36,142 nucleotides of DNA from an uncultured Gemmatimonadota bacterium. Its GTDB lineage: Bacteria; GCA-2686955. This document shows positions 5,465-25,841 of this stretch, in pieces. The first letter of the stretch is position 1, and each line of letters starts with the position of its first letter. The stretch spans positions 62,001 through 98,142 of the forward strand of contig CAZBBK010000014.1 in NCBI GenBank assembly GCA_964490075.1, read 5' to 3'. The position numbers and the translations under genes were made by a program. Under the pieces are notes generated by a model, which saw nothing but the letters and a program-made list of their open reading frames with translations, made no database searches and was not told the origin of the DNA.

Positions 5465-5684
5465 CACGCACGCAAGTGTAGCGGTGGCGTCGCCGTGGTA
5501 CGAGGCGCAGCGGTCCTGGAAGTAGCCGGGCATGGCGAATGCCGGCGCAGCCGTCAGCGCCGGGGCCGCCGCGCTTCGGCTGGCGCCATGATACTCGCAG
5601 GAAGGAGAGGGGAAGGGGGTCGGGAAAGGGAGCCGCAGCGATGCCCCAAGGTCATGGCGCAGCGGTTCGCGGGCGGCCGCGCGA

Positions 5685-8429: not shown

Positions 8430-8498
8430 GCTTCGAGGGTCCGGGTGTGCGCGTGTGCTCGGACCCCCGTCCGGCACGCGGAGCGCGGAGGTGAGCTG

Positions 8499-8939
8499 AT
8501 GCGAATCGCGCTGGCCAGCGACCACACGGCGATCGAGCTGCGCAAGGAGCTCGGCGCCTGGGTGCGCGCCCAGGGCCACGAGGTGGTCGATCTCGGCACC
8601 CATTCGAGCGCCTCCTGCGACTACCCGGACCTGGCGCGGGCGGGGGCAGAGCTCCTGGGGCGTGGCGAGGTGGAGCGCGCGATTCTGTTCTGCGGCACCG
8701 GCCAGGGGATGGCGATGACCGCCAACCGGGTCGCCGGGGTGCGTTGCTGCGTCTGCAGCGAGAGCTACAGCGCGCGGATGTCCCGCGCCCACAACGATGC
8801 CAACGCCCTGGCCCTGGGCGCGCGCGTGATTGCCTTCGGGCTGGCCCGGGAGATCACCCAGGCGTGGCTCGAGACCCCCTTCGACGGCGATCGCCACGTC
8901 GGCCGCGTGGCCAAGATCGAGCCCGCCGCCGCAGACTGA
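8499..8939 (+). CDS. rpiB: Ribose-5-phosphate isomerase B
   Basis: ATG 8499 with GGAGGTG. MRIALASDH, DYPD, FCGTGQG, RAHNDANALALGAR, FDGDRH..RV.KI. Confidence 0.95.
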   Translation: MRIALASDHTAIELRKELGAWVRAQGHEVVDLGTHSSASCDYPDLARAGAELLGRGEVERAILFCGTGQGMAMTANRVAGVRCCVCSESYSARMSRAHNDANALALGARVIAFGLAREITQAWLETPFDGDRHVGRVAKIEPAAAD

Positions 8940-8972: not shown

Positions 8973-10217
8973 GTGCACTACCTTCCCGATCTCGATCCTG
9001 AGCTGCACGCCGCCTTCCAGGCCGAGCTCGGGCGCCAACGCCACACGCTGGAGCTGATCGCTTCGGAGAACATGGTGCATCCGGCGGTGCTGGAGGCGGC
9101 CGGATCGATCATGACCAACAAGTACGCCGAGGGCTATCCCCACAAGCGCTACTACGGCGGCTGCGACCACGTCGACGCCGCCGAGGACTTGGCGCGGGAC
9201 CGGGCCTGTCTGCTCTTCGGCGCCGAGCACGCCAACGTGCAGCCACATTCCGGATCGCAGGCCAACATGGCGGCCTACCTGGCGCTGCTCGAGGTCGGCG
9301 ACCCGATCCTCGGCATGTCGCTCTCCGACGGCGGCCACTTGACGCACGGCCACCACGTCAACTTCTCCGGGCGTCTCTTCGACGTGAAGAGCTACGGAGT
9401 GGGGGAGGACGGGCGAATCGACTATGACGCAGTCGAGGCGCTCGCCACCGAGCACCGGCCGAAGATGATCGTGGCGGGGGCCTCGGCCTACGCGCGGGTC
9501 ATCGACTTCGAGCGTTTTCGCGCCATCGCCGACCAGGTCGAGGCGCTGCTCATGGTCGACATCGCCCACATCGCCGGGCTGGTCGCGGCCGGCATCCATC
9601 CCTCGCCGATCCCCTTCGCCGAGGTGGTCACCTCGACCACCCACAAGACCTTGCGGGGGCCGCGCGGAGGGCTGATCCTGACGCGCGAGAAGCATGCGTC
9701 AGAGATCGACAAAACGGTCTTTCCAGGAATCCAGGGAGGGCCGCTGATGCACGTGATCGCGGCCAAGGCGGTGGCCTTCAAGATGGCCTTGCAAGACGAT
9801 TTCCGGCACTACATGACGCAGGTGGTGGCGAACGCGCAGGCGCTCGCGGCGGGGTTGATCGAGCGCGGCTTCACGGTCGTCTCCGGCGGCACCGATACCC
9901 ACCTCTTCCTGGTAGATTTGACGCCGCTCGGCAACATCTCCGGCAAGAAGGCCGAACGCCTCCTGCACCAGGCGGGAATCACCACCAACAAGAACACGGT
10001 GCCCGGCGAGAAGCGCTCGCCCTTCGTCACCAGCGGCCTCCGGATCGGCACCCCGGCGCTCACCACGCGCGGCATGGGCGAGGCGGAGATGCGCGTCATC
10101 GCCGACCTGATCGCCGAGGTGATCGACAGCCGCGGAGACGCAGAGGTCGAAGGCCGCACGCGGACGCGGGTGCGGGAGCTCTGCGACGCCTTCCCAATGT
10201 ACGGAGAGCTCGACTGA
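8973..10217 (+). CDS. glyA: Serine hydroxymethyltransferase
   Basis: [45 protein letters not shown]-lysine motif [21 protein letters not shown]. Confidence 0.98.
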
Positions 10218-10218
10218 G

Positions 10219-10674
10219 ATGCGCTGCCCGTTCTGCTCCAGCGACGCCGACAAGGTGGTCGAAACGCGGGGTGCGCGCAACCAGAACGCGATACGCCGGC
10301 GCCGCGAGTGCACCGCCTGCCAGCGCCGCTTCACCACCTACGAATCGGTCGATCTGACCCCTCTGCGGGTGATCAAGCGCGACGGCGGGCGTGAGGGCTA
10401 CGACCGCGAGAAGCTGCGCCGCGGAGTGCGCACCGCCTGCGTCAAGCTGCCGATTCCGAGCGCCGAGATCGATGCCCTGGTGGCGCGCGTGGAGGGGCGG
10501 CTGCACAACGCGCTCGGGGGCGAGGTGGCCTCCGACGAGATCGGCGCGGCCGCGCTGCGCGAGCTGGCGGCGCTCGATCCGGTCGCCTACATCCGCTTCG
10601 CCTCGGTCTATCGGCGCTACCGCGACCTGCGGGAGTTCATGGACGAGGTGGACGCCTGCCTGAAGAGTTCGTGA
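10219..10674 (+). CDS. nrdR: Transcriptional repressor NrdR
   Basis: MRCPFC...IRRRRECTACQRRFTTYE zinc ribbon; ATP cone VIKRDG...VAYIRFASVYR. The glyA-nrdR order is common. Confidence 0.97.
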   Translation: MRCPFCSSDADKVVETRGARNQNAIRRRRECTACQRRFTTYESVDLTPLRVIKRDGGREGYDREKLRRGVRTACVKLPIPSAEIDALVARVEGRLHNALGGEVASDEIGAAALRELAALDPVAYIRFASVYRRYRDLREFMDEVDACLKSS

Positions 10675-11957
10675 TTCCACCCGACGAGCACGACGCCGAG
10701 CCGGAGGGAACGGCCGCGGGGGCCGGCGAAGGGCCGGAGGCCGGGGCAGCGGGCGACGCGGCGGCCGACCCGGCGGCCGATCCGGCGGCGCTGCCGGTCG
10801 AGTCGAGCGGGTCGCGACCGCGCAGCGCGCCCTTGCCGAGCACGAAGCGGCGCGAGGCGGCTCCGCCGGCGCCGTTCGAGGACGGGGGGGAGGCGCCCGA
10901 GCCCGGGGAGATGTCGTTCCTGGACCACCTGGAGGAGCTGCGGCGGCGGCTCTTCGTGGTGGTGCTCGCGGTGGCGCTGGGGACCGGGCTCGGCTACGTG
11001 ATCGCCCCGCAGGTGTTCGAAGTGGCGATCGGCCGGCTGCCCCAGACGCTCGAGCAGGGGCCGCTCGGCGGTGGGTTGCGGGCCTGGGTGGCGAAGCTGA
11101 CCGGCGACCTGATCGAGTCCGAGGAGGAAGAGGAGCCGAGCGCCGCGGACCGGGCGGTGGCGGACCGCGAAGATGCGCAGGCGGACCGCGAAGATGCGCA
11201 GGCGGACCGCGAAGATGCGCAGGCGCGCGATGACGCGGCTGCGCGGCTCGATGCGCTGCTCGAGGCCGCGTTGCAGGGCGACACTGGCGCGCGTCGCGAG
11301 CTTCCTGGGGCGATCGCGGCTTTGGCACGGGCCGAAGCCGACGCCGCTCTGAGGCGGGCGCGCCTCGACGCATCGCCCGCGGCCGACCCGCCCGCGGAGC
11401 TGATCGTGACGACTCCGGCGGGAGCGATCCTCACCAAGCTCAAGGTTGCGGTGTTCGTCGGCATCGTGCTCTCGGTCCCGGTGATCGTCTACCAGGCGTG
11501 GATGTTCGTGGTGCCCGGTCTGGTCGCCAAGGAGCGCCGCATCGCCACCTTCCTGGTCGTTCCGACCACCCTCTGTTTCGCCTTGGGGGTTTACTTCTCC
11601 TATCGCATACTCCCCCTCATCACTGCCTTCCTCAGCTCCGTGAGCGCGGAGTTGGGGGTCGAGCAGCGCTGGATCGCCGACGACTATCTGGGCTTTGTGC
11701 TCAAGTTGATGTTGGTCGGTGGGGTATCGTTCCAGCTTCCGGTCGTCTCCTTCGGCCTTGCCAGCCTGGGGATCATCGGACCATCGACACTCCGCCGCCA
11801 TCGACGACTGGCGGTGGTGATCATCCTGGTCGCCGCGGCGACCTTCACGCCGCCCGACCCGCTCTCCATGATCTTCATGGGGTTGCCGCTGCTCTTGCTC
11901 TACGAGATATCGATCGGAGTGGCCGCGCTGGCGCGCCGCCGCGCTCAGGAAACGTGA
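10671..11957 (+). CDS. tatC: Twin-arginine translocase subunit TatC with N-terminal extension and periplasmic insertion
   Basis: EMSFLDHLEELRRRL, YQAWMFVVPGL..KERR, FQLPVV, FTPPDPLSM..PLLLLYEISI. GTGA overlap with nrdR; exact start uncertain. Confidence 0.93.
   Translation: MIPPDEHDAEPEGTAAGAGEGPEAGAAGDAAADPAADPAALPVESSGSRPRSAPLPSTKRREAAPPAPFEDGGEAPEPGEMSFLDHLEELRRRLFVVVLAVALGTGLGYVIAPQVFEVAIGRLPQTLEQGPLGGGLRAWVAKLTGDLIESEEEEEPSAADRAVADREDAQADREDAQADREDAQARDDAAARLDALLEAALQGDTGARRELPGAIAALARAEADAALRRARLDASPAADPPAELIVTTPAGAILTKLKVAVFVGIVLSVPVIVYQAWMFVVPGLVAKERRIATFLVVPTTLCFALGVYFSYRILPLITAFLSSVSAELGVEQRWIADDYLGFVLKLMLVGGVSFQLPVVSFGLASLGIIGPSTLRRHRRLAVVIILVAAATFTPPDPLSMIFMGLPLLLLYEISIGVAALARRRAQET
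11160..11222 (+). repeat. Perfect 21-bp tandem repeat x3 encoding (ADREDAQ)3 in tatC
   Basis: GCGGACCGCGAAGATGCGCAG at 11160, 11181 and 11202. Confidence 0.95.
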
Positions 11958-11960: not shown

Positions 11961-12992
11961 ATGTTGAAGACCGATTCTCCCTTCGGAGTGATCGACGCCC
12001 AGCTTGCCCGCTTCGAAGAGGCCTGGCTGGATGCGCTGACATCCGATATGCGTCTGATCCGTGAGATCTCGGGCCATCTGCGCCAGATGCGCGGCAAGCG
12101 CTTTCGCCCCGCGCTCACGATCCTCAGCGCGGGAGCGGATCTCGACGAAGCGGCGGCGGAGCGAGTGCTGACCGTGGCCCTGGTGGTGGAGATGATCCAC
12201 ACCGCCACGCTGATCCACGACGACATCATCGACCATTCGCTGCTGCGCCGCGGTTTGCCGACCATCAACGCGCGCTGGAACCGCAAGACCGCGGTGCTGA
12301 TGGGCGACTATCTCTTTGCCCGTGCCTTCTCCACCATGGTGCACGAGACGACGCCCACGGTGGTGACCATCATGGCCGACGTGACCTACGAGCTGTCTCA
12401 GGGGGAGCTGATCCAGGAGCAAGTGATCTTCCAGCCCGGCCTCGGCGAGCAGGAGTACTTCGGCCTGATCGACCTCAAGACCTCGGCGCTGATCGGCGCG
12501 GCCTGCGAGATCGGCGCCGCGGTGACCGGTGCGCCGCCCACCGAGCAGGTGCGGCTGCGGCGCTTCGGCCGGCGCCTTGGCCTGGTCTATCAGATCGTCG
12601 ACGACATCCTCGACTTCGCCGGCGAGGAGGAGCGACTGGGCAAGCCGGTGCACTGCGATCTGGCCCAGGGAAAGGTGACATTGCCCCTGATCTGGGCCTA
12701 CCAGAGCGCCTCCGAGGCGGAGCGAGCACACGTCGACACCCTCTTCCGCGACGGTCTGGCGCGCCGCGAGGGCGGCGATGGACAGGTGAAGGCGGCGCGG
12801 GAGCGTCTGCCGGAGGTCCCCTGGCACGAGGTGGAAGAGATCGTGGCGCGTCACGATGGCGTCGGTCTGGCCCGCGCTCGAGTGGCGTCGATCGCCGAGC
12901 AGGCACGACTCGATCTGCACGAGCTGGAGAGCGAGGAGCTGGCCGCCAGGCTGGAGCCGATGCTCGACTTCGTCATCTCGCGAGATCGTTAG
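11961..12992 (+). CDS. Long-chain polyprenyl diphosphate synthase (IspB/HepT-like)
   Basis: GKRFRP, EMIHTATLIHDDIID..LRRG, AVLMGDYL, KTSAL, YQIVDDILD, LGKP..DLAQGKVTLP. Confidence 0.94.
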   Translation: MLKTDSPFGVIDAQLARFEEAWLDALTSDMRLIREISGHLRQMRGKRFRPALTILSAGADLDEAAAERVLTVALVVEMIHTATLIHDDIIDHSLLRRGLPTINARWNRKTAVLMGDYLFARAFSTMVHETTPTVVTIMADVTYELSQGELIQEQVIFQPGLGEQEYFGLIDLKTSALIGAACEIGAAVTGAPPTEQVRLRRFGRRLGLVYQIVDDILDFAGEEERLGKPVHCDLAQGKVTLPLIWAYQSASEAERAHVDTLFRDGLARREGGDGQVKAARERLPEVPWHEVEEIVARHDGVGLARARVASIAEQARLDLHELESEELAARLEPMLDFVISRDR

Positions 12993-13019: not shown

Positions 13020-13295
13020 ATGGCGCTGCGCAGCCAGAAGAAGCCGCTCGGACTGGTGGTCCTGGTGCTCGTGCTGGGCATGCTGATGGGCAGCCTGATG
13101 GGAGAGCTGATCAGCGAGTTCATGGTCGACGGCGTGGTGAAGGACTTCTTCACCCGCTCGATCGCGCCGGGCTTTTCGCCGAGCACCCTCGACCTGGTGG
13201 TGCTGCGGCTGACCTTCGGGCTGACCTTGAAGCTCAATGTGATCAGCGTCGTGGGCGTGGCGCTGGCGGCCTACCTCCTGAGATGGTACGAATGA
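13020..13295 (+). CDS. Small membrane protein, DUF4321-like
   Basis: 91 aa with two hydrophobic segments and the pattern LGMLMGSLMGEL...LDLVVLRLTFGLTLKLNVISVVG. Confidence 0.75.
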   Translation: MALRSQKKPLGLVVLVLVLGMLMGSLMGELISEFMVDGVVKDFFTRSIAPGFSPSTLDLVVLRLTFGLTLKLNVISVVGVALAAYLLRWYE

Positions 13296-14512
13296 GGCAG
13301 TGCGCGATCATCACCGTGCTGGCGGCGGCGCTGGCGGCCGGCTGCGCCGACACCGCGGGCGATCTGCCCACCGGCTTCACCGATCGCGGCGGGCTCGAGC
13401 GCCAGGTCGCATCGATCTCGCTGCGGCCGATCCGCCACGCCTCGCTGGTTGGGGAACGGGCCAACGGCAACGCCTTCGCGGCCCACGTCGGCGAGCGCGA
13501 CGGGGTGCGCGCGGCGGCGATCTTCCACTTCCCGCTGGCTGACAGCGCGGGCCTGCCCTACCTGGCCGAGGGCGACACTCTGCTCGAAGCCAGTCTCTCC
13601 TTCACCACGCTGCGCCGGCGGCCGCTCGATTCCGACCAACGGGTCGAGCTCTGGGCGGTCTGCGAGCCCTGGGACGAAGACAGCCTGCTGACCGCCGAGG
13701 AGCTGGCGCCGACCCTCATCGACGAGCTGATCTGCACCGGCGAGCCTCTGGGGGAGATGAGCTTCGCCGGCGGGGACACCGCCACCGCCACGCTGCCGGT
13801 GGCGCTCGAGCAGGTGCGGAGCTGGATGGACGACCCCGAGGGGAACCTGGGGGTGGCGCTGCTGCCGGTGGGCGAGGCCGCGATGAGCGCGGTGTCGTCG
13901 ATCTCGGCCGCGGCGCCGGCTCGGCTCAGCCTGGTGGTGAGCGCGGCCGGCCGCAGCCGCATCTTCTCGATCACGCCTTCGCAGGACAGCTACGCCGTGG
14001 CGATCGCCGATCCCGATCTCTTCGCCGACCAGGACGACCGCTTCACGGTGCAGAACGGGTTGGCGCGACGCGGGCTGATCGAGTTCGACCTGGGCGTGGT
14101 GCCGGAGCGGGCCACGGTGCTCTCGGCACGGCTGGCGCTGATCCCCGACGCGGCGCGCACCTGGCGCTTCAACCCCGGCTTCGGGCTCGAGGTGCACGAG
14201 GCGAGCGCCGAGAACTGGGGCGGCGACTTCGCCAACCTGGAGGGCGAGGTGTTCCCGGGCACCACCGTCGACGTCTTCGATCTGAGCGAGCTCCTGCTCG
14301 ACAGCCTGGTGATGAACGTCCAGGTGCCGGTGCAGGGCTGGGTCAACGACCCGGCGAGCAACCAGGGTCTGCTCTTCCGCACCACCGCCGAGGTCGGCGA
14401 CGTCTCCTACGTCTCCTTCTTCGCCGGCGAAGCGGCGACCGACTCGCTGCCGCGCCTCGACATCCAATACGTGACGGCGCCCGAGAGCCGCTTCGGCGGG
14501 GGTGGGTCGTGA
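13292..14512 (+). CDS. Lipoprotein with two DNRLRE/DUF4270-like beta-sandwich repeats (BamH-like candidate)
   Basis: ATGA-coupled start, lipobox LAAGC. Two internal repeats: TLLEASLSF..VRSWMDDPEGNLGVAL..ARLSL and TVLSARLAL..VQGWVNDPASNQGLL..PRLDIQY. Confidence 0.75.
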   Translation: MRQCAIITVLAAALAAGCADTAGDLPTGFTDRGGLERQVASISLRPIRHASLVGERANGNAFAAHVGERDGVRAAAIFHFPLADSAGLPYLAEGDTLLEASLSFTTLRRRPLDSDQRVELWAVCEPWDEDSLLTAEELAPTLIDELICTGEPLGEMSFAGGDTATATLPVALEQVRSWMDDPEGNLGVALLPVGEAAMSAVSSISAAAPARLSLVVSAAGRSRIFSITPSQDSYAVAIADPDLFADQDDRFTVQNGLARRGLIEFDLGVVPERATVLSARLALIPDAARTWRFNPGFGLEVHEASAENWGGDFANLEGEVFPGTTVDVFDLSELLLDSLVMNVQVPVQGWVNDPASNQGLLFRTTAEVGDVSYVSFFAGEAATDSLPRLDIQYVTAPESRFGGGGS

Positions 14513-15744
14513 GAGTCCTATCTCTGCTCTTGCTCGCTGGCGCTGTGGCGCTGATGCCGCCGGCGCGCGGCGCGTCGATCTTTGCGCTGAACGGTCTGGG
14601 GGAGCCGGTGTCGCCGGCCGATGTGCGCGCGCTGGGAATGGGCGGGGCGACCATCGCGTTGGGCGAGGGCCGCAGCCTGTCGGCCCTCAACCCCGCCACC
14701 GCGCGGGCCGGGGAGGATGCGCTCTTGGGTGTGGAGCTGAGCCCGGGTCTGCTGCGCAGCGAAGGACCCGAGGCGGTTCTGAGCACCGAGGGCTTCGGCC
14801 TCGAAAAGGCCCGAGTGCTCTTCCCGATCGGAGGCGGAGGCACTCTGGCCTTCGGCCTGCACACCGTCGCCTCCTTCGACACCCCGCGCATCGAGACCGT
14901 GCTGGACGGCGGCGATAGCCTGATCTACCGGCGCTCGACTCAGTCGACGGGCAGCATCGCCGCGCTCGGTGGCGGCTGCGCCTTCGATCTCGGCGCGTTG
15001 ACCCTCGGCGTCCGCGGCGACTATCTCTTCGGCTCGGCCGTCGAGGAGTGGCGGGTGAGCTTCGAGGGTGACACCCTCTTCCACGATTCCTCGGGCCGCC
15101 CGGTGCCGATCCGCGACCAGCTCGACATGTGGCGCACCTCGATCCTCGGGGCACGGTTGGCGGCCGGCGTCCTGGTCCGCAGCACGCGCGTCGACTTCGG
15201 CCTCTTCGGCTCCTACTCGCCCTGGGCCGAGGGGGCCGAGCACTTCGAGGGGATCGCCTCGGGCAACGAAGCGCGCACCGAGCACAGCTACACGCTTCCG
15301 CTGGAGGCCGGGGTCGGCTTGAGCTGGCGACCGCTGCGGGGCCTGACTCTGGCCGCTGACGCCGAGCTCAGCACCTGGTCCGCCTTCGAGGTGGACGGTA
15401 GGACGCAGCCGGCGCTGGCCGACAGCCGGCGGCTGGCTGCCGGGCTGGAGTGGTACCTGGGCCGCGACGACACCTTCCTGGGCGCCAATCTGCCGCTGCG
15501 TCTCGGCGTGGCCCGGGCGCCTCTGCCCTGGCGCGTCGCCGGTCCCGGGGCCGAGTGGCGGCCGATCGGCGCCAGCCGCTTCACGCTCGGCACCGGATCG
15601 TCGTTCGCGCACGGCAAGGGCTGGGCCGACCTGGCCTTCGAATACATCGTTCGCGACCAGGCCGAGATCCGCGAGCGCGAGTACCGCTTCCACCTCTCGC
15701 TCGGCCTGATGGAGCACTGGATCCGGAAGCTCCCGGCTCGATGA
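14509..15744 (+). CDS. FadL-family outer-membrane beta-barrel (BamG-like candidate)
   Basis: Signal peptide ending ARG-A; N-terminal SIFALNGLGE..RALGMGG..LNPA; amphipathic strands; C-terminal FHLSLGLMEHWIRK. GTGA overlap with the upstream gene. Confidence 0.8.
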   Translation: MRVLSLLLLAGAVALMPPARGASIFALNGLGEPVSPADVRALGMGGATIALGEGRSLSALNPATARAGEDALLGVELSPGLLRSEGPEAVLSTEGFGLEKARVLFPIGGGGTLAFGLHTVASFDTPRIETVLDGGDSLIYRRSTQSTGSIAALGGGCAFDLGALTLGVRGDYLFGSAVEEWRVSFEGDTLFHDSSGRPVPIRDQLDMWRTSILGARLAAGVLVRSTRVDFGLFGSYSPWAEGAEHFEGIASGNEARTEHSYTLPLEAGVGLSWRPLRGLTLAADAELSTWSAFEVDGRTQPALADSRRLAAGLEWYLGRDDTFLGANLPLRLGVARAPLPWRVAGPGAEWRPIGASRFTLGTGSSFAHGKGWADLAFEYIVRDQAEIREREYRFHLSLGLMEHWIRKLPAR

Positions 15745-16910
15745 TCCCGATCCTGATCTACCACTCCATCAACGAGCCGCGCCCGGGTCATGTCTGGGCC
15801 CGCCTGTCGCTGCCGCCCGCGGTTTTCGAGGCGCAGATGGCCCACATTCGCCACGCCGGTTTGAACCCGATCGGCTTGCGCGAGGCCCACGCCGGGCTCA
15901 GCGAGCCGGGGGCTCTGCCGCCCCGGCCGGTGGTGGTCAGCTTCGACGACGGCTACCTCGACAACCACCTTTTCGCGTTGCCGATCCTGGAGCGTTACGA
16001 GATCCCGGCGACCCTCTTCGCGGCGACCGAATTCGTCGATCGCCGCGCCGGAGTGCGGTCAGGGGAGGGGGTGGCGCCGGGCTCCGAGGCATCCTACGGC
16101 TACCTCTGCTACGACGAGCTGCGGGCCATGGAGGCGACCGGCCTGGTGCGGGTGGAGTCCCACTCCACCACCCACGGCGAGATCGCAATCGGCCCCGAGA
16201 TCCTCGACTTCCACCATCCCGAAGGCGACGCCTACTGGATCCACTGGCAGCTCCAACCGGAGCGCAAGCCGGACTGGCTGACCTGCGACTACCGGCGCCA
16301 GATCCCCCTCGGCACACCGGTCTATCGCCATACCTACGCCATGGTGGGGCGTTGCTGGAGCCCGCCAGAGCAGGAGATCGAGGCCTGCCGCCAGGCGGTG
16401 CGCGAGAGCGGCGGTGGCGCGTTTTTCGAGCGTTCCGACTGGCGCAGGCGACTGCGCGAGATCGCCCTCGCGGCCGCACCCGCCGAGCGCGACGACCCTT
16501 CGCGGCGCGAGAGCGAAGCGGACTACCGCGCCCGGGTGCTGGCCGATCTGGGCGACTGCCGCGCGGAGCTGGCCCGCGAGCTCGGACACGAGGTGCGCTA
16601 CCTGTGCTGGCCCTGCGGCCTCTACGACGACACCACGCGCGCCCTGGCGGCCGAGGCGGGCTATGCCGCCACCTTGACCTGCGAGCAGTACAGCAACCAC
16701 CCCGGGCAGGATCCCGCGCTGCTCCATCGCCTCTACTTCGGTCAGGACGAGCGCTACCTGCGGATTCGCACCGATGCCCTGCTGAATCTCCGCTTCCGCG
16801 GCACCCTGCGCTCGGCCCACGGCCTGCGCTCGGGCAAGCTCATGACCGTGGCCGCCAATCGCGCCATGGCCCTGGTCGATGCCTGCGAGAGGCGCCGGCC
16901 TCCCAATTGA
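15741..16910 (+). CDS. Polysaccharide deacetylase (CE4/NodB) with large internal insertion
   Basis: ATG 15741 (ATGA overlap). IPILIYH, VVVSFDDGYLDN, ATLF, ESHSTTH, LCWPCG, AGY, LHR. No signal peptide. Confidence 0.9.
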   Translation: MIPILIYHSINEPRPGHVWARLSLPPAVFEAQMAHIRHAGLNPIGLREAHAGLSEPGALPPRPVVVSFDDGYLDNHLFALPILERYEIPATLFAATEFVDRRAGVRSGEGVAPGSEASYGYLCYDELRAMEATGLVRVESHSTTHGEIAIGPEILDFHHPEGDAYWIHWQLQPERKPDWLTCDYRRQIPLGTPVYRHTYAMVGRCWSPPEQEIEACRQAVRESGGGAFFERSDWRRRLREIALAAAPAERDDPSRRESEADYRARVLADLGDCRAELARELGHEVRYLCWPCGLYDDTTRALAAEAGYAATLTCEQYSNHPGQDPALLHRLYFGQDERYLRIRTDALLNLRFRGTLRSAHGLRSGKLMTVAANRAMALVDACERRRPPN

Positions 16911-17141
16911 CCCCTCCGTGGTTTGTCGGACGGCGTTATAAGTGAGTCGGGGGACGGCTCCCGCTGAAGTCTCGCGCTCGGACAGACGATCAGGAACGAG
17001 AGGTTCCGCAGGTCGGCGCGACCGCCCATGCGACGCATTGAATTCGGCGGAAAAGCCGTTCTGTCGTGCTAAACTCCTGGTTTTGCTCACTTCCGGTCTC
17101 CGCCATCCAGCCGCGCACGCGGCCCACGAGGCTTCCAAACC

Positions 17142-17858
17142 ATGACTGACTCTTCGGTCCCCCGTCGCGCGGCAGACCTGCGCGTCTTGGGCGATCCCGG
17201 GCGAGCGGGCGTCTCGCTGGCGCCCTTTCTCGGACCGGTGCGCGCTTCGGAGCAGTTCCAGGGTCAGCTCGAGTCCCTGCTGCAACGGCTCGGTCTGCAC
17301 CGCCTGGCCGGGGAGTCGCGGAGCATCGTTTTCTCGGGCGTCGACTCGGCGATCGGCACCACCACCATCGCGGTCGGGGTGGGCTGGATTCTGGCCACCC
17401 GGCACGCGCTGCCGACCGTGATCGTCGGCGCCGATCTGCGTCCCGCAGTAGGCAGCGAGGGCGGCGCCGCGAAGGCCGGGGTGCGCCAGGTTCTGAGCGG
17501 CGCGGCGTCGCTCGAATCCGCCCTGCAGCGCACCGAGTTCTCGGGCTTCGACGTGCTGCCGGCCGGCCACGGCGGAGCCGGTTTCGCGGGCGCCGACCTG
17601 GGCCATCTGTTGCGTTCGCTCGAGCGCAGCTACCGCGCGGTGCTGCTCGATACCGCGCCGGTGCTGGACTATCCCGAGACCGCCCTGCTCACCGCCGAGG
17701 CCCACGGCACGGTGCTGGTGGCGCGCCACCTGGCCTCCAGTCGCAAGCGCCTGGTGCAGGCCGGCACCCTGGTGCGCGGCAGCGGCGGCAGCCTGCGCGG
17801 CGTCGCCATCAACGGGATCGAAGAACCACTGCCCGCGTGGCTCGCGGCGCGGATCTGA
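17142..17858 (+). CDS. CpsD/CapB-family BY-kinase homolog with degenerate catalytic motifs
   Basis: Layout SIVFSG..GTTT / IVGADLR / VLPAG / VLLDTAPV / GTVLVAR / LRGVAIN. First gene of the EPS operon. Confidence 0.8.
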   Translation: MTDSSVPRRAADLRVLGDPGRAGVSLAPFLGPVRASEQFQGQLESLLQRLGLHRLAGESRSIVFSGVDSAIGTTTIAVGVGWILATRHALPTVIVGADLRPAVGSEGGAAKAGVRQVLSGAASLESALQRTEFSGFDVLPAGHGGAGFAGADLGHLLRSLERSYRAVLLDTAPVLDYPETALLTAEAHGTVLVARHLASSRKRLVQAGTLVRGSGGSLRGVAINGIEEPLPAWLAARI

Positions 17859-17868
17859 AAGGCGGCAG

Positions 17869-18609
17869 ATGCGAATCCGAGGGATCTTCTTGGCGCTCAC
17901 GCTGCTCGCCGGCTGCGGCGGGCGGCCCGGCCCGGTGGTCACCGGCCACCTGGGGAGCGCGGGGCCTCCGCCGAGCCCGGCGCCGCCCTACCTGATCCAG
18001 ACCGGCGACCTGCTCGGGGTGCGTTTTTTCCGCGCCCCCGATCTCAGCGCCGAGCACCGGGTGCGCCCCGACGGACGGATCACTCTGCCGCATATCGGCG
18101 ACGTGGTGGCCGAGGGGCTGTCGCCCGACGCCCTGCACGACATGATCGTGGCTCGCTACACGACGGTGCTGAAAGACCCCGAGCTGACCGTGGCGGTGCT
18201 GGAGTTCGAGCCGCCGACGGTCTACGTGGGCGGTCAGGTGGGTCGTCCCGGAATCTACGAGCACACGCGGGAGATGACCGCACTGCGCGCCGCGCTTGGC
18301 GCGGGGGGCTTCACCGACCAAGCGGCGCGCAGCCGGGTGGTGGTGATCCGAAACACCGGCGAGCGCACGCCCGAGTCCTTCGAAGTCGATCTGGAGCGCG
18401 CGGTGGAGGCGGCGGACGGCGCCTTCGATCCCTATCTCCAGGCGCAAGACATCGTGATCGTGCCGCGCAGCGGCGCGGCCTCCGCGGACCTCTTCGTCGA
18501 CCAGTACATCGATGGGATCCTCCCCGACCTGGTGGAGCGCGGATTCAGCTACGCCCTTGGCGTCCTGGCCGCGGACGAAGCCCGAAAGTGGCGTGATGAT
18601 AACCTCTAA
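17869..18609 (+). CDS. wza: Polysaccharide export lipoprotein (Wza/OPX family)
   Basis: Lipobox LLAGC; PES motif YLIQTGDLL..VRPDGRITLPHIGDVVAEG; SLBB VYVGGQVGRPG..AGGFT; LQAQDIVIVP. Confidence 0.92.
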   Translation: MRIRGIFLALTLLAGCGGRPGPVVTGHLGSAGPPPSPAPPYLIQTGDLLGVRFFRAPDLSAEHRVRPDGRITLPHIGDVVAEGLSPDALHDMIVARYTTVLKDPELTVAVLEFEPPTVYVGGQVGRPGIYEHTREMTALRAALGAGGFTDQAARSRVVVIRNTGERTPESFEVDLERAVEAADGAFDPYLQAQDIVIVPRSGAASADLFVDQYIDGILPDLVERGFSYALGVLAADEARKWRDDNL

Positions 18610-19654
18610 TAGCCTCGAAGACGTGCCGGCCGCCGCGGCTGAAGCGGGGCGGCGAGGGGTTCGTCTCACCGATCCACTCTCGGCCGGCGACGAGCCGCAC
18701 GTCCTGATCCTGGGCGCCGACGCCCGCGCGCTCGCCATCGGCGATCGTCTCCAGGCGAGCAAGATGCGCGTGATCGGACATCTGGGGCGCGACGACGATC
18801 AGTCTCGGAACGAGGTGGTGGGGACTTACTCCGAGCTCGAGCAGATCCTCCGCGACGAGGTGGTGGATCGGGTGGTGGTCGCGGTGCACCACGACAGCGC
18901 CCGCCAGATCGTCACCCGCGCCCTGCATCTCTGCGCCCTGATGGGTGTGCCGGTCTGCGCCGAGGAGGCGTACGAGCAGTTCCTGCGCTGCGGACGCCTG
19001 AGCGCCGGCGCCAAGATGGTGCCGCTCGGCTCCACCATGACGCCCAGCGATTCCGCTCTGGTCGTGCGGCGCTTCGTCGATCGGCTGCTGGCGCTGTTGA
19101 TGATCGTCGTCGGCCTGCCGGTCTTTCCCTTGCTGGCCATCGCGATCCGTCTCGACAGCAAGGGCCCCATCATCTTCCGCCAGGTGCGGGTGCGCAACAA
19201 CGGCCGCCACTTCCACCTGTTCAAGTTCCGCACCATGGTCGACAACGCCGAAGAGCTGAAGGCGCGACTGATGGCGCAGAACCAGGTGGACGGGCCCGCC
19301 TTCAAGATCGAGGGCGATCCGCGCATCACCCGCGTCGGCCACCTGCTGCGCCGCCTGCGCATGGACGAGCTGCCGCAGCTCTTCAACATCCTGAGCGGCG
19401 ACATGGCGATCGTCGGCCCGCGTCCGCCGCTCCCCGCCGAGGTCGAGCGCTACGAGAGCTGGTACATGCGGCGTCTCTCGGTCACTCCGGGGCTGACCTG
19501 CCTGTGGCAGATCGAGCACGGACCGCTGGGCGTCGGCTTCACCGAATGGATGCGACTCGACTGTCGCTACATCGAAGAGTGGAGCCTCTGGAACGACGCC
19601 AAGATCTTCCTCAGAACCGTCCCGATCGTGCTCTTCGGCATTCGGGCGATGTAA
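18596..19654 (+). CDS. Priming phosphoglycosyl transferase (WcaJ/WbaP-like), lacking N-terminal TM bundle
   Basis: GPIIFRQVR, LFKFRTM, DPRITRVG..LR..DELPQLFNILSGDMAIVGPRP, PGLTCLWQ. Rossmann-like N-terminal domain (VLILGA). Start ATG 18596 or GTG 18593. Confidence 0.93.
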   Translation: MITSNSLEDVPAAAAEAGRRGVRLTDPLSAGDEPHVLILGADARALAIGDRLQASKMRVIGHLGRDDDQSRNEVVGTYSELEQILRDEVVDRVVVAVHHDSARQIVTRALHLCALMGVPVCAEEAYEQFLRCGRLSAGAKMVPLGSTMTPSDSALVVRRFVDRLLALLMIVVGLPVFPLLAIAIRLDSKGPIIFRQVRVRNNGRHFHLFKFRTMVDNAEELKARLMAQNQVDGPAFKIEGDPRITRVGHLLRRLRMDELPQLFNILSGDMAIVGPRPPLPAEVERYESWYMRRLSVTPGLTCLWQIEHGPLGVGFTEWMRLDCRYIEEWSLWNDAKIFLRTVPIVLFGIRAM

Positions 19655-19680
19655 CGACACCCGATTTACAGGTGAACGCG

Positions 19681-21231
19681 ATGGAGAGCTCCCCTCCCGA
19701 CAGGTCGAGACCAGAGATCGAGGGCATCGGCATCGATCCCGGTGATCTATTGCGTCTCTACTTCCGCCACACGAAGCTGATCGTGGCGATCTTCCTCGGC
19801 GTGATGGCGCTGGCGACGACGCTGGTCTATCTGATCCCGCCGACCTACGTCTCATCGGCCGAGCTCTTGATCGCGCGCAACGAGCCCGACGTGTCGGAAG
19901 GGGAGTACCAGCGACCGGTGACCGCGCTCGATCGCGGCGAGCTTTTGGCCACCGAGGCAGAGATCCTGACCTCCGAGGGACTGGTGCTGCGCACCCTCTC
20001 CGACCATGCCAAGCTGAACGCGGCGCCGACCGAGGTCGACTACGTGAAGCTCTTCTTGAAGTACGCCTTCATGCCGCTCAAGACGCTGGGCCTGATGTAC
20101 GAAGGCGACGATCCTCTGGCGGACCGGGTGCGGAGCCTGGCGAAGCGGCTCACGGTCACCGAGCACGTCGATGCCAATACGCTCACCGTCGAGTTCGAGC
20201 ACGACTCGCCCGACATCGCCCAGAAGGCGCTGCAGGCCTTGATCGACACCTACCTGCGCTTTCGCATCGAGACCTTGCGCCGGCCCGAGCTGCAGGAGCA
20301 TTTCGAAGAGCGCATGGGCTCGACCACCGACCGCATCGCCGAGGTCGAGGGGCAGCTGCTCGACATCGAGGAGCAGTCCGGTCTGATCCGCCCGGACGTC
20401 GAGCTGGAGCACGCGGTGTCGCATCTGGCCGAGATGCGCAACGACCTGGTCGACCTGCGGGTCGACGAAAAGGCGCTGCGCGGCCGTCTGGAGCAGATCG
20501 ATGCGCAGCAGCGCGGCCTGGAGCGTTCGACCGTGATCCGACGTGAGACCGGACGCAATCCGGCCTGGGAGGCGCTGACCGAGACCGTCACCAACCTGGA
20601 GCGGCGCAAGACCCTGATGGGGGCGGTCTATCGAGAGGACTCCGATCCGATCAGGCAGGTGGCGCGCGAGCTCGAGCTGATGCGCGAGCTCTTGTCGCAG
20701 ACGCCCGAGATGATCCAGACGGTCGAGGTGGTGGGGCCGAACGAGCAGCTCGACGCGCTGCGCGGCGAGCGCGATCAGTCGATGATCGAGCTGGCGACGG
20801 TCGGGCGCCGCATCGAAGCCCTGACCGAGGCGATCGAGGGGTCGCGCGACGGTCTGCGCGGCATGAGCCGCTGGGCCAACGCCGCGGCGCGCGCCGACGC
20901 CGAGATGCTGGCGGTGTCCAATACCTACCAGATCTACCTCAACAAGCGCGAAGGGGCGCGGTTGGCGGAAATGGCCGACAAGGGCGAGATCAACGTCAAG
21001 ATGATCAAGCCGCCGCTGCGTCCGGACAAGCCGGCCATGCACCGCCTGATTCCGATCATTCTCGCCGGCATCGCCGGCCTGGCCCTGGCCTTCGGGCTGG
21101 TCACGATGATCGAGCTGCTCAACGGCACGGTGCGCAGCGAGCACGACGTGGAGCGCGCCCTCGGTGTGCCGGTGCTGGCGGCGGTCGAGGCGGCGGATGA
21201 GGCGGCGGACGAGGAGGCGCGCGCCGCTTGA
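19681..21231 (+). CDS. Polysaccharide co-polymerase (GumC/Wzc N-terminal, PCP-2)
   Basis: TM1 then PPTYVSSAELLI, TEAEILTS, long coiled coil, IKPP.RP..P, TM2, TVRSEHDVERALGVPVLA. Confidence 0.9.
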   Translation: MESSPPDRSRPEIEGIGIDPGDLLRLYFRHTKLIVAIFLGVMALATTLVYLIPPTYVSSAELLIARNEPDVSEGEYQRPVTALDRGELLATEAEILTSEGLVLRTLSDHAKLNAAPTEVDYVKLFLKYAFMPLKTLGLMYEGDDPLADRVRSLAKRLTVTEHVDANTLTVEFEHDSPDIAQKALQALIDTYLRFRIETLRRPELQEHFEERMGSTTDRIAEVEGQLLDIEEQSGLIRPDVELEHAVSHLAEMRNDLVDLRVDEKALRGRLEQIDAQQRGLERSTVIRRETGRNPAWEALTETVTNLERRKTLMGAVYREDSDPIRQVARELELMRELLSQTPEMIQTVEVVGPNEQLDALRGERDQSMIELATVGRRIEALTEAIEGSRDGLRGMSRWANAAARADAEMLAVSNTYQIYLNKREGARLAEMADKGEINVKMIKPPLRPDKPAMHRLIPIILAGIAGLALAFGLVTMIELLNGTVRSEHDVERALGVPVLAAVEAADEAADEEARAA

Positions 21232-22580
21232 GCCCGCCCTCCACGATGACCGATTCCAAAACCGGCTCGAAGCTGATCTCGGACGGGTTGCTCACCTACG
21301 CGACCGAGTTCTCGAGCGCGCTGCTGAACCTCGGCACCAGCATCCTGATCGCCCGCATTCTCGGGCCGAGCGGTCGCGGGATCTACGCGATCTTCATCCT
21401 GGTGCCGATGACGCTCCAGCAGTTCGGTGTGTTCGGGCTGCCGCAAGGGGTGGTGCACTACATGCACAAGGACCCCGAGGGGCGCGGGCGGCGGGCGATG
21501 AACATGGTGCTGGCGGCGGCCCTGGTCGGCATCCCTTATGCCCTGGTGGCCCGCTGGATCTTTGCCACCGGAGCGCTGGATGAGCTGCGCCATGCGTCGG
21601 AGCTGGTCACCACCTTGGTGGTCTGCTGCGTGCCGCCCATGCTCTTCAACGCCTATGCGCAAGGCTTCGTGCTCGGCCTGGACGACCTCGTGAAGCGCAA
21701 CCTCTTGAGGATCGTCGAGCTGGCGGTCTACTTCGCCGGCGTGGTGCTCTTCGTGGTGCTTCTCGATCAAGGGGTGGTGGGGGCGATGAAGGCCTGGGCC
21801 GGGGGAATTCTGGCGACCACCGTGCTGGGGGGCTTCTATCTGCTGCCGGACGCCGCCCGGGCGCGCTTCCGTCCCGACCCGAGGCGTCTGAAGCGGGACT
21901 TCGCGTTCGGCATCCGCGGCTTCATCGCCACCGTTGCCTTCTTCCTGCTCTACCGGCTCAACCTCTACCTGGTCTCGCATTTCCTCGACAGCGACGCGGT
22001 CGGACACTATTCGGTGGCGGCCGCGCTCCTGATGATGATGGCGATCCTGCCGCAGGCGATCGACCAGGCTTTCCTGCCCAAGGTCACGGCGCGCTACGCG
22101 GCCGGTGGCGGTCAGGAAAGGATGACGCCCCTGATCTCGCGCCTCTCGCTGATCATCTCGGCGGCCTGCGCTTTTGCGATGGCGATCGGCGCCTGGCCCC
22201 TGGTGTGGGTCCTCTACGGTCAGGAGTATCTGCCGGCGGTGGGCGCTCTGCTGGTGCTGCTGCCCTCGGTGACGGTGCTTTGCGGCATGGCGGTGCTGAG
22301 CTCGGCGCTGCAGGCGCGCGGGCGACCGATCTGGAACTCGGTGGGGGCGGTGGTCGGCTTCACGGCGAACGGCATCCTGGGGCTTCTGTTGATCCCGCAC
22401 TGGGGCATCATGGGCGCGGCGCTGGCGTCGAGCGTCGGCTACCTGGCCTTCGGCTGCGTGCTGGCCTTCGCCTTCCTGCGCTTCGAGCCGCAGGTGCGGG
22501 CGGCCGATCTGCTGGTGCCGCGCCGTGCCGATCTGAAGCTGCTCTGGAGCGGGGTTCGCTCGCTGCGCGGGGTGGCCTGA
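21228..22580 (+). CDS. wzx: Wzx-type oligosaccharide flippase
   Basis: About 12 TM helices. ILIARILGPSGRGIY, VGHYSVA, LYGQEY, LIPHWGIMGAALASSVGY. TTG 21228 (GAGGAGG upstream) or ATG 21246. Confidence 0.92.
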   Translation: MSPPSTMTDSKTGSKLISDGLLTYATEFSSALLNLGTSILIARILGPSGRGIYAIFILVPMTLQQFGVFGLPQGVVHYMHKDPEGRGRRAMNMVLAAALVGIPYALVARWIFATGALDELRHASELVTTLVVCCVPPMLFNAYAQGFVLGLDDLVKRNLLRIVELAVYFAGVVLFVVLLDQGVVGAMKAWAGGILATTVLGGFYLLPDAARARFRPDPRRLKRDFAFGIRGFIATVAFFLLYRLNLYLVSHFLDSDAVGHYSVAAALLMMMAILPQAIDQAFLPKVTARYAAGGGQERMTPLISRLSLIISAACAFAMAIGAWPLVWVLYGQEYLPAVGALLVLLPSVTVLCGMAVLSSALQARGRPIWNSVGAVVGFTANGILGLLLIPHWGIMGAALASSVGYLAFGCVLAFAFLRFEPQVRAADLLVPRRADLKLLWSGVRSLRGVA

Positions 22581-22593
22581 AGGGTAGCGGGCG

Positions 22594-24462: not shown

Positions 24463-24476
24463 GGGCAGCTCGCTGT

Positions 24477-24533
24477 GTGGCCCACTCCGCAATTACGGCG
24501 GCCGAATGCCACCGCAATTGCGGAGTGGGCCAC
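24477..24533. repeat. 26-bp-arm inverted repeat containing two CCGCAATTRCGG palindromes
   Basis: Arms 24477-24502 and 24508-24533, loop CGAAT, two mismatches that are G-U pairs on the minus-strand RNA. Confidence 0.9.
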
Positions 24534-24620
24534 CAAGGGGCCGATGGAAGGAGTGGCAGAGTACTACCCGATCGGGCTTTCGAACGCCGCGACTTGACTG
24601 CGCTGGCCCCGATTCCTAGC

Positions 24621-24637
24621 CTGGCACGCTCGGAGCT
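24621..24637 (+). promoter_or_regulatory. Possible sigma-54 promoter for the GT4 gene
   Basis: CTGGCACG-CTCG-GAGCT: perfect -24 box, GG-N10-GC spacing, imperfect -12 (GAGC vs TTGC), about 30 bp before ATG 24666. Confidence 0.55.
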
Positions 24638-24665
24638 CATAGGAACAAGAGGACTCGCACCACAG

Positions 24666-25841
24666 ATGCCAACGAGAGATCGCTGGGGAGAGCCCGATCC
24701 GACGCGGATCACCGTGCTCTTCTTCCCCTGCAACTTCGTGATCGGCGGCATGCAGCGCCAGCTCGCCGACCTGGTCACCCACATCGATCGAGACCGCTTC
24801 CGGCCTCTGGTCGCCTGCTTCGGCCCCTCGGGCCCCTTCGCCGCGGAGCTGGAAGAGGCCGGAATCCCCTTCGATTGCTGGGACGAGGAGCCTTGCTACG
24901 ACCTCGGCGCGTTGCGCATGACGGCACGCATGGTGCGCCTGCTGCGCCGCGAGCGGGTGCAGATCTTCCAGACCTACGAGTTCCCGACCAAGGTGCTCGG
25001 CTGGATCGCCGGCACCGCGGCCCGCAGTCCGGTGATCACCTGCGCCGAGCACGGCACCGGGGAGCCCAAGGACACGCAGCGCAAGACCTGGCTCCTGCGC
25101 AAGCTCAGTCCGCTCTGCGATTCCTTCATCTACGTGGCCGATGCTCAGCGGCGCTTCTACCGCGACCAGCGCGGCTTCCGCCTCGGCGGGCGCACCGAGG
25201 TGATCTACAACGGTATCAATCACCGGCGCTTCGACCCCGGGGCGGTGCAGCCGCTGACGCGCGCCGAGCTCGGCATTCCGGAGCGCGCCCCGGTGGTCGG
25301 CATCACCGCCGTGCTGCGCGAGGAAAAGGCCCACGAGGTGCTGCTGCGCGCCTTGCCGGTCATCGAGCAGCAGGCGCCGGGCACCCATGCGCTGATCGTC
25401 GGCGACGGCCCCGAGCGACCCGCGATCGAAGCCCTGGCGCGCCAGCTGGGGGTCGCCGAACGGGTCGTGATCACCGGCTTCCGGGGCGACGTGGAGCGCA
25501 TTCTGCCGCTCTTCGACGTGATGACGCTGTGCTCAGATCCGGTGGCCGAGACCTGTCCCCTCTCGGTGCTGGAGGCGATGTGCATGGGCAAGCCGGTGGT
25601 CGCGACCGCGGTCAGCGGCCTGCCGGAGCTGGTGGTCGAAGGAGAGACCGGGCACCTGGTCGGAATCCGCGATCACGAGGCCCTGGGAGCGCGGATCGGG
25701 GAGCTGCTCGCTGATCCCGAGCGGGCCAGGGCGCTGGGCGCCGCCGGACGGATGCGGGCGCTCGCACGTTTCACCATCCCGCACATGGTGGCCCACCACG
25801 AGCGGCACTACGAGAAGCTGGTGCGCGAGGCGCTCGGCTGA
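24666..25841 (+). CDS. Glycosyltransferase family 4
   Basis: ATG 24666 (GAGGA upstream). IGGMQRQL, VIYNGI, EKAHEVLL, IVGDGPER, E-x7-E motif ETCPLSVLEAMCMGKPVVAT, GETGHLV. Confidence 0.93.
   Translation: MPTRDRWGEPDPTRITVLFFPCNFVIGGMQRQLADLVTHIDRDRFRPLVACFGPSGPFAAELEEAGIPFDCWDEEPCYDLGALRMTARMVRLLRRERVQIFQTYEFPTKVLGWIAGTAARSPVITCAEHGTGEPKDTQRKTWLLRKLSPLCDSFIYVADAQRRFYRDQRGFRLGGRTEVIYNGINHRRFDPGAVQPLTRAELGIPERAPVVGITAVLREEKAHEVLLRALPVIEQQAPGTHALIVGDGPERPAIEALARQLGVAERVVITGFRGDVERILPLFDVMTLCSDPVAETCPLSVLEAMCMGKPVVATAVSGLPELVVEGETGHLVGIRDHEALGARIGELLADPERARALGAAGRMRALARFTIPHMVAHHERHYEKLVREALG

Follow-up and report, generated by a model that had tools for sequence, protein, structure and literature searches.

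Overlapping genes for a probable BamH-type lipoprotein and BamG-type barrel in an uncultured Gemmatimonadota bacterium

The β-barrel assembly machinery (BAM) of Bacteroidota has the accessory pair BamG, a FadL-type barrel, and BamH, a lipoprotein. In the available text of PMC12578637 and PMC12611786, solved BamG structures are reported for Bacteroides thetaiotaomicron (Bt4367; 9HIV and 9HJ3), Porphyromonas gingivalis (9HJM), and Flavobacterium johnsoniae (Fjoh_1412; 9N2D), and the core pairs Bt4367 (bamG)/Bt4306 (bamH) and Fjoh_1412 (bamG)/Fjoh_0823 (bamH) are encoded by unlinked genes. A further pair, BamG2–BamH2 (Bt1785–Bt1786), is described in the available part of PMC12578637 as adjacent genes, putatively an operon, whose BamH2 has about 100 residues fewer than BamH; the pair was undetected in B. 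thetaiotaomicron proteomics, was dispensable, and was predicted to form a BamG–BamH-like unit. As for distribution, PMC12611786, in the sections available, describes BamG and BamH as conserved outside Bacteroidota in six of the other seven phyla of the Fibrobacteres–Chlorobi–Bacteroidetes (FCB) group, whereas PMC12578637, in its available sections, gives BamH as apparently confined to Bacteroidota. Here we analyzed a stretch of 36,142 nucleotides from an uncultured Gemmatimonadota bacterium (contig CAZBBK010000014.1, positions 62,001–98,142 of the forward strand), referred to as the window, in which two overlapping genes at 13292–14512 and 14509–15744 encode a lipoprotein and a barrel. Homology of the barrel to BamG and, transitively, of the lipoprotein to BamH, fold matches to these proteins, conserved termini, and a predicted interface were observed. 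The pair is probably a BAM-associated unit for outer-membrane protein assembly, consisting of a BamH-type lipoprotein and a BamG-type barrel; by analogy with the solved complexes, it would associate with BamA, be exposed at the surface, and take part in protein insertion. The features of the locus were as follows.

Positions 13020–13295, + strand: DUF4321 small membrane protein, 91 amino acids (Pfam PF14209).
Positions 13292–13295, + strand: ATGA overlap of the DUF4321 stop and the lipoprotein start, read from the sequence; the GAATGAGG junction occurs likewise in the two nearest relatives, L001 and L002.
Positions 13292–14512, + strand: BamH-like lipoprotein, 406 amino acids (NCBIfam DNRLRE_dom, AlphaFold2 model, Protein Data Bank (PDB) fold matches).
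Positions 13292–13345, + strand: lipoprotein signal peptide with the lipobox L-A-A-G-C at its end and Cys18 predicted to be lipidated (translation).
Positions 13346–13405, + strand: N-terminal tail after the cysteine, ADTAGDLPTGFTDRGGLERQ, with a P-x-G motif and predicted barrel contact (family alignment, predicted interface).
Positions 13406–13915, + strand: first DNRLRE/CBM96-like β-sandwich domain, about residues 39–208 (AlphaFold2 secondary structure, duplication, alignment to 9hjm_G).
Positions 13916–14491, + strand: second DNRLRE/CBM96-like domain, about residues 209–400, predicted to dock on long barrel strands (NCBIfam, interface).
Positions 14509–14512, + strand: GTGA overlap of the lipoprotein stop and the barrel start, read from the sequence, with an equivalent junction in L001 and L002.
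Positions 14509–15744, + strand: BamG-like FadL-fold outer-membrane barrel, 411 amino acids (NCBIfam NF053685, profile A2, AlphaFold2, fold matches).
Positions 14509–14574, + strand: putative barrel signal peptide MRVLSLLLLAGAVALMPPARGA, included only when the GTG start is used, with an inferred cleavage site (sequence).
Positions 14575–14706, + strand: conserved N-terminal tail and hatch region with S-x-F-x-x-x-G-L-G-E, R..GMGG, and NPA (conservation, alignment to BamG).
Positions 15712–15729, + strand: C-terminal motif E-H-W-I-R-K (alignment to BamG C-termini).

A preliminary description of this DNA, made from its letters, had proposed the two proteins as a candidate BamH–BamG pair on the strength of N- and C-terminal barrel motifs, and these motifs were present as described. 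They comprised S23-I-F25-A-L-N-G29-L-G31-E32, R40-A-L-G-M-G-G46, and N61-P-A63 in the N-terminal region and E402-H-W404-I-R-K407 at the C-terminus. Most of the motif residues were invariant among five relatives with 42–100% identity, and within this subfamily 21 of 44 columns were invariant in residues 23–66 as against 94 of 329 in residues 67–395. The stretch S23-x-F-x-x-x-G-L-G-E32 aligned with S28-P-Y-T-R-Y-G-Y-G-D37 of B. thetaiotaomicron BamG, in which the available text of PMC12578637 places a conserved N-terminal extension at residues 23–37. E-H-W-I-R-K aligned with ESWFKK of 9hjm_F, ERWF of 9hiv_F, and DKWFNK of a Sphingobacteriaceae BamG (locus L003). Judged by these alignments, the motifs are the conserved termini of BamG. 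In a search of NCBIfam, BamG (NF053685) was the sole family matched at E ≤ 0.1 (E 3.8e-22, 78.9 bits), and the relatives P0002, P0004, and P0005 scored 88–93 bits over positions 4–395 of the 397 in the model. The single barrel sequence matched P. gingivalis 9hjm_F (E 3.3e-6) and B. thetaiotaomicron 9hiv_F (E 0.032) in the PDB. With profile A2, built from the five close relatives only, these two chains were the only PDB matches at E ≤ 10 (9hjm_F, E 1.9e-19; 9hiv_F, E 6.8e-19), both in full-length alignments, and no FadL, TodX, or PorV chain was matched at that threshold. From the NCBIfam and A2 results, the barrel lay nearer in sequence to BamG proteins defined by experiment than to FadL or PorV.

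The AlphaFold2 model of the barrel had a mean predicted local distance difference test score (pLDDT) of 83 and a predicted template modeling score (pTM) of 0.80 with a 10-row alignment. The first three Foldseek matches were 9hiv_F, 9hjm_F, and 9n2d_B, with E values of 9e-22 to 2e-18, template modeling (TM) scores of 0.77–0.84, and root-mean-square deviations (rmsd) of 3.0–3.6 Å; 9HIV and 9HJM are BAM complex structures of PMC12578637, according to its available text. FadL, TodX, TbuX, and CymD ranked behind (E 3e-13 and weaker, TM 0.49–0.63, rmsd 6.6–9.2 Å), and AlgE reached a TM score of only 0.29–0.33. The barrel thus resembled BamG in its FadL-type fold, with a profile that aligned to the solved chains over the full length, in a tail of the form S-x-[FY]-x-x-x-G-x-G-[DE] followed by R/K..GMGG, NPA, and a C-terminal E/D-x-W, and in being predicted to hold the lipoprotein on long strands. 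It differed in having only 14–18% identity in structural alignments and, with respect to the B. thetaiotaomicron protein, in a tail that appeared to begin about five residues after the equivalent of Q23, counted by hand from the putative signal cleavage site. Sequence and model together supported a divergent BamG homologue.

A different reading, that the barrel is a FadL-type transporter or a PorV-type protein and the lipoprotein an unrelated neighbor, would draw on the FadL fold and the NPA hatch motif, which place the barrel in the same superfamily as FadL/TodX and PorV/PorQ, and on weak family matches. The FadL/TodX family was tried and rejected with Pfam Toluene_X (PF03349), whose match to the barrel (E 0.028) had 13.4 bits against a gathering cut-off of 29.7. 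PorV/PorQ (NF033709, cut-off 90 bits) was likewise rejected: the window barrel had no match at E ≤ 0.1, and the PorV_fam matches of the relatives P0004 (16.5 bits) and P0005 (27.2 bits) were in the N-terminal region and far under the cut-off. Similarity to FadL/TodX and PorV/PorQ in sequence and fold was much weaker than that to BamG, as the A2 search and the TM scores given above indicated, and the barrel had the N-terminal motif of the extension typical of BamG. Together with the confidently predicted barrel–lipoprotein interface, these results made the FadL/PorV assignment extremely unlikely. One observation concerned the barrel start: the public protein P0001 (396 amino acids) was 15 residues shorter than the open reading frame (ORF) with the GTG start (14509–14553). 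Its length fitted a start at Met16, which would remove the signal peptide and suggests that the source record mis-calls the start.

The lipoprotein began with MRQCAIITVLAAALAAGC and had a cysteine at residue 18. The cysteine of a lipobox is the residue that becomes lipidated. An exhaustive phmmer search with the lipoprotein against 1.84 billion representatives returned 282 matches at E ≤ 0.001, of which 21 had E ≤ 1e-10 and 3 had E ≤ 1e-30; among the best 150 of the 282, 79 were 340–440 amino acids long, mostly with a lipoprotein signal at the start. A family alignment (A3) was made of the window lipoprotein and 74 relatives (75 sequences), and 5 sequences without a recognizable signal were left out. 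The lipid cysteine column was Cys in 74 of the 75 members, and P-x-G was found no more than 16 residues after the cysteine (position 4–8 from Cys) in 39 of 74, including the window lipoprotein. In the window protein the cysteine was followed in the order C-A-D-T-A-G-D, with two acidic residues among the first six, a rule met by 24 of the 74 family members; this acidic export signal for surface exposure is quoted for Bacteroidota in the available text of PMC12578637 and may not apply in the lineage of the window. The NCBIfam model DNRLRE_dom (NF033679) matched the lipoprotein with 49.1 bits (E 6.2e-13), above its cut-off of 34, best over residues 259–394 in the 409-residue numbering, and it matched all 75 family members; CBM96 was matched by 37, Disaggr_repeat by 33, and TGFb_propeptide by 33. 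Against Pfam, the window protein itself gave TGFb_propeptide alone, below threshold. The preliminary description had spoken of a two-repeat lipoprotein, and the duplication was borne out at the profile level: hhalign of the N-terminal against the C-terminal half of the family alignment gave a probability of 98.8% (E 6.5e-17, 133 columns), and plain BLASTP between the halves was weak (E 0.004, 40 residues).

When the family profile A3 was compared with the PDB, it matched P. gingivalis 9hjm_G, named a DUF4270 domain-containing protein, with an E value of 7.1e-11, from the signal peptide and cysteine through the first domain, so that the tail of the lipoprotein family aligned with the tail of P. 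gingivalis BamH. A wider family profile from which the window subfamily was removed (A6) still matched 9hjm_G (E 1.5e-10), and the window subfamily aligned to A6 with a probability of 100% (E 1.3e-57, 370 columns). In a language-model atlas, used as a lead only, the nearest clusters were from Gemmatimonadota, Bacteroidota, and Fidelibacterota, one of them with DUF4270 on 16% of its members. The AlphaFold2 model of the lipoprotein (75 rows) had a pLDDT of 89.3 and a pTM of 0.84, and its first three Foldseek matches were 9n2d_C, 9hjm_G, and 9his_G (E 3.2e-12 to 8.6e-11, probability 1.00); the next match had an E value of 2.7e-4 and a probability of 0.08. Entry titles, chain lengths, and chain lettering point to 9n2d_C and 9his_G as BamH chains and to 9n2d_B as a BamG chain. 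Further fold matches included chondroitin-sulfate (8wab_A) and alginate (7vbo) binding modules. In common with BamH, the window lipoprotein had a conserved tail after the cysteine, an elongated build of two β-sandwich domains, a domain resembling a carbohydrate-binding module (CBM), and a family profile homologous to the N-terminal half of P. gingivalis BamH. It differed from BamH in being shorter, in having two domains that were clear duplicates of each other, and in the NCBIfam name of a DNRLRE domain protein in place of a direct DUF4270 match. These sequence and model comparisons supported an internally duplicated protein of the DNRLRE/CBM96 type with a BamH-like fold.

A complex was predicted from the mature forms of the barrel (residues 22–411, alignment A4) and of the lipoprotein (residues 18–406, A3). 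The score was 0.77 (median of 0.78, 0.77, and 0.75), and the best of three controls scored 0.00. The 0.77 mark was attained by 116 of 157 solved complexes and by 2 of 215 mismatched pairs, counts that apply only approximately here, because the alignments for the window pair were made specially for this analysis. The runs had at least 84% of contacts in common, with a partner pLDDT of at least 81. On the lipoprotein, the predicted interface comprised the tail (residues 25–39) and parts of the second domain (273–280, 327–352, and 392–401); on the barrel, it comprised the N-terminus (24–29) and long strands at about 128–144, 177–210, and 244–259. In the available text of PMC12611786 and PMC12578637, the lipidated BamH tail runs along BamG and meets its N-terminus, and the folded end of BamH docks on extended strands. 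The interface of the model is the arrangement published for BamG–BamH, and the barrel was accordingly predicted to hold a BamH-type lipoprotein on its extracellular strands. Grouping of the barrel with PorV or FadL transporters and lack of an interface with the lipoprotein had been named in the preliminary description as grounds against the pair; the searches instead placed BamG closest, and the interface was predicted.

The solved Bacteroidota BAM complexes suggest, by analogy, how the two proteins, made together from overlapping reading frames, would work. The barrel, as a BamG-type 14-strand FadL fold, would lie against the back of BamA, and its conserved N-terminal tail would fill the lateral opening that serves for substrate in FadL transporters. 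Its long extracellular strands would hold the lipoprotein, whose lipidated N-terminal tail would wrap along the barrel, and the two β-sandwich domains would form a small extracellular canopy over BamA. Such a canopy might help to fold those outer-membrane proteins that have lipoprotein partners or large surface parts.

Several results weighed against this assignment to BAM. Neither BamA nor BamD was found among the window ORFs scanned, and the genes next downstream were a polysaccharide deacetylase gene and an exopolysaccharide cluster. The 78.9 bits of the barrel were below the curated BamG equivalog cut-off of 250, which two controls exceeded (L003, 305 bits; P0157, 277 bits). No match of the lipoprotein to Pfam DUF4270 (PF14092) was obtained at E ≤ 0.1, and DUF4270 was matched by only 2 of the 75 family members at E ≤ 0.01 (best E 0.0039). 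The single lipoprotein sequence found no solved relative in the PDB at E ≤ 1, and a narrow five-sequence profile (A5) found no BamH chain at E ≤ 10, its best matches being TGF-beta-family propeptide chains only (E 1.2). Since the narrow subfamily profile did not reach BamH and the wide family did, the sequence homology to BamH was transitive. Whole-chain TM scores between the lipoprotein and the chains in the BamH position were 0.45–0.58. Because BamG–BamH complexes have already been solved, the high score of the predicted complex may reflect model memory or likeness rather than binding. In the comparison by profile models and Foldseek that had been proposed for the pair, BAM subunits were the best fold matches of both proteins, the barrel stayed below the BamG cut-off, and the lipoprotein gave no DUF4270 match. 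The description of the lipoprotein as DUF4270-like held for its fold and for the remote profile match, and failed for a direct Pfam match.

The main rival to the core-BAM reading was that the pair is a paralogous module of the BamG2–BamH2 type, with the same barrel–lipoprotein unit placed outside core BAM and a role that is separate, conditional, or unknown. The window genes were adjacent and overlapping like Bt1785/Bt1786, whereas the core bamG and bamH of B. thetaiotaomicron and F. johnsoniae are not linked (PMC12578637 and PMC12611786, in the text available), and the barrel gene here overlapped the lipoprotein gene by 4 nucleotides. The lipoprotein was short, at 406 amino acids against 462 deposited for 9hjm_G and 439–520 resolved, and the score below the BamG cut-off also fitted a paralogue; the likeness to BamG2–BamH2 was drawn from the published description alone. 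On the other side, no second pair was known in the one genome window seen, and the pair stood among consecutive housekeeping genes (rpiB, glyA, nrdR, tatC, and polyprenyl synthase) in a different phylum, whose gene linkage need not follow the Bacteroidota pattern. We regard the paralogous module as rather unlikely, and the assignment to core BAM as the preferred interpretation. The two proteins had earlier been called divergent orthologues; homology to BamG and BamH stood, and in view of the BamG2–BamH2-like traits of adjacent genes and a shorter lipoprotein they are at most candidate orthologues.

A genome scan for the barrel gave four loci (L001–L004) from 115 candidate stretches. The nearest relatives were L001 and L002, contigs of metagenome-assembled genomes (MAGs) labelled Gemmatimonadetes or Gemmatimonadota, with barrels 68% identical to that of the window. 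The gene order of L002 was the same as in the window from the dehydrogenase genes to the deacetylase, and both loci kept the DUF4321–lipoprotein and lipoprotein–barrel junctions. The lipoprotein and barrel pair also appeared under the consecutive locus tags CME06_14715 and CME06_14720. At L003 (7386–8813), a Sphingobacteriaceae barrel scored above the curated cut-off of the BamG model, as given above; in the ORF list its neighbors were a 239-residue ORF upstream and a 186-residue lipoprotein-like ORF downstream, and neither DUF4321 nor a BamH-sized ORF was among them. A barrel without a BamH-size neighbor fitted the unlinked core bamG and bamH of Bacteroidota. At L004 (8004–8936), a MAG of WOR-3 encoded a 310-residue protein with the N-terminal motif S-V-F-S-L-N-G-L-G-E and 17.8 bits on the BamG model, which by its sequence may be a truncated or very divergent BamG relative outside the FCB group. 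Neither a DUF4321-like ORF nor a lipoprotein of BamH size was found beside the barrel at L003 or L004 in an ORF list filtered by size and by GC content at third codon positions (GC3). A word-indexed homologue search was shallow, with 6 and 8 proteins for the barrel and 9 for the lipoprotein family, the last with little taxonomy.

The surroundings of the pair bore on another interpretation, in which it serves the neighboring exopolysaccharide system and a barrel-held surface lipoprotein of the carbohydrate-binding type binds or organizes the polymer. The barrel gene shared a 4-nucleotide ATGA overlap, at 15741, with the gene for a PgaB-like polysaccharide deacetylase, and exopolysaccharide genes followed; CBM96 matches in 37 of the 75 family members and the chondroitin-sulfate and alginate binding modules among the fold matches pointed in the same direction. 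A CBM-like fold is itself described for BamH in the available text of PMC12611786, however, and the overlap of the barrel and deacetylase genes was not kept in L001 and L002, where these genes were separated. The best matches of the barrel were BAM subunits, with a low TM score to AlgE, and we consider a role in exopolysaccharide handling highly unlikely.

The DUF4321 protein, which the preliminary description had suggested as a possible inner-membrane partner of the pair, matched Pfam PF14209 with an E value of 7.5e-14 and 51.7 bits, above the gathering cut-off of 27. Hydrophobic stretches at about residues 9–31 and 71–88 were read off its sequence. As that description had stated, the three genes were linked by 4-nucleotide overlaps: in gaATGAggc the ATG at 13292 lay on top of the TGA stop at 13293–13295, and in tcGTGAgag the GTG at 14509 lay on top of the TGA stop at 14510–14512. 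The lipoprotein had two in-frame ATG starts, at 13283 (409-residue numbering) and 13292 (406 residues), and the ATGA overlap resulted from taking the second; the first would give an overlap of 13 nucleotides. The genes for nrdR and tatC also overlapped by 4 nucleotides by their coordinates (10671–10674). Since such overlaps also joined unrelated neighbors, here and at the deacetylase gene, an overlap by itself did not single out the trio. Adjacency of DUF4321 to the lipoprotein was found in the window, L001, and L002 only; the linkage expected from a survey of synteny was thus kept in these two relatives, and in the filtered ORF list it did not extend to the two more distant barrel loci. No paper mentioning DUF4321 was found in a literature search. 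The nearest DUF4321 clusters in the language-model atlas, again a lead only, were mainly from Gemmatimonadota and Bacillota, and because they were common in Bacillota too, they gave no suggestion of a BAM-specific role. The proposed partnership was not upheld, as it came down to adjacency in the window and two relatives with 68% identical barrels, and DUF4321 is most likely merely a neighboring gene for a small inner-membrane protein. It is very unlikely that DUF4321, BamH, and BamG form a three-gene module, the small inner-membrane protein being produced along with the outer-membrane pair and acting with it, for instance in lipoprotein hand-over or in coupling of the envelope layers, or, more modestly, that twin-DNRLRE lipoproteins of about 390 residues are the true BamH of FCB lineages other than Bacteroidota, missed by the DUF4270 model and maybe an ancestral form of a BamGH operon.

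Because BamG and BamH outside Bacteroidota have already been published (PMC12611786, in the text available), the window pair is a divergent example of a known system, and the known picture of BAM is unchanged by it. A literature search on BamG together with gemmatimonads found one paper, by its title and abstract a plant-microbiome study of no relevance here. The pair offers an example, at the level of sequence, of a BAM accessory pair of the Bacteroidota type from a high-GC lineage, the nearest records of which carry the label Gemmatimonadota. Its points of interest are modest: the overlapping gene pair, the compact BamH-like protein with duplicated domains, and a blind spot of annotation. 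The lipoprotein escapes annotation under the name of a DNRLRE domain protein or a hypothetical protein instead of DUF4270, and this blind spot may explain why BamH is given as confined to Bacteroidota in PMC12578637 and as present across the FCB superphylum in PMC12611786, as far as the available sections of the two reports go. An overlapping pair with a compact lipoprotein could also be a simpler model for the origin of the extracellular BAM canopy.

The window had a base composition of 66–72% GC, and GC3 was 0.89–0.93 in the DUF4321, lipoprotein, and barrel genes, a strong coding signature. The pair lay in a tightly packed run of + strand genes from the rpiB-like gene through the barrel and the deacetylase to the exopolysaccharide cluster, with the following neighbors.

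Positions 8445–8939, + strand: rpiB-like gene (ORF and family scans).
Positions 8973–10217, + strand: glyA (ORF and family scans).
Positions 10219–10674, + strand: nrdR (ORF and family scans).
Positions 10671–11957, + strand: tatC (ORF and family scans).
Positions 11961–12992, + strand: polyprenyl synthase (ORF and family scans).
From position 15741, + strand: PgaB-like polysaccharide deacetylase (Pfam and NCBIfam scans).

In the exopolysaccharide cluster (15741–27364), the deacetylase gene was followed by genes for a Wzc-like kinase domain, Poly_export/SLBB, a sugar transferase, Wzz, and a flippase; WecG- and GT4-type transferases and Wzy_C were also encoded there. The preliminary description had placed the pair in the same run as tatC. 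The gene order agreed, and no meaning was evident in it; the tatC neighborhood looks like ordinary housekeeping packing. A scan for promoters and terminators was uninformative, with no promoter predicted and 4 terminator-like sites where 3.2 were expected, and scans of the window gave no tRNA and no Rfam match.

Within tatC, a perfect 21-bp tandem repeat of 3.2 copies at 11159–11225 encoded ADREDAQ three times. The TatC protein was unusually long, at 428 amino acids, and the tatC ORF of L002 encoded 380. The 208-position Pfam TatC model was stretched across residues 85–406, indicating a large insertion in TatC. Three ORFs elsewhere in the window were without a family assignment: 27614–30955 (+ strand, 1113 amino acids, coding-type GC3 of 0.88) was matched by neither Pfam nor NCBIfam at E ≤ 0.001, and 3–725 (− strand, 241 amino acids) and 35399–35953 (− strand, 184 amino acids), both with a coding-type GC3 of 0.84, had no Pfam or NCBIfam match. 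At 804–5533 on the − strand, a protein with ethylbenzene-dehydrogenase-like and CBM9-like domains was encoded beside a histidine kinase of the Cache/HAMP type and a sigma-54 response regulator.

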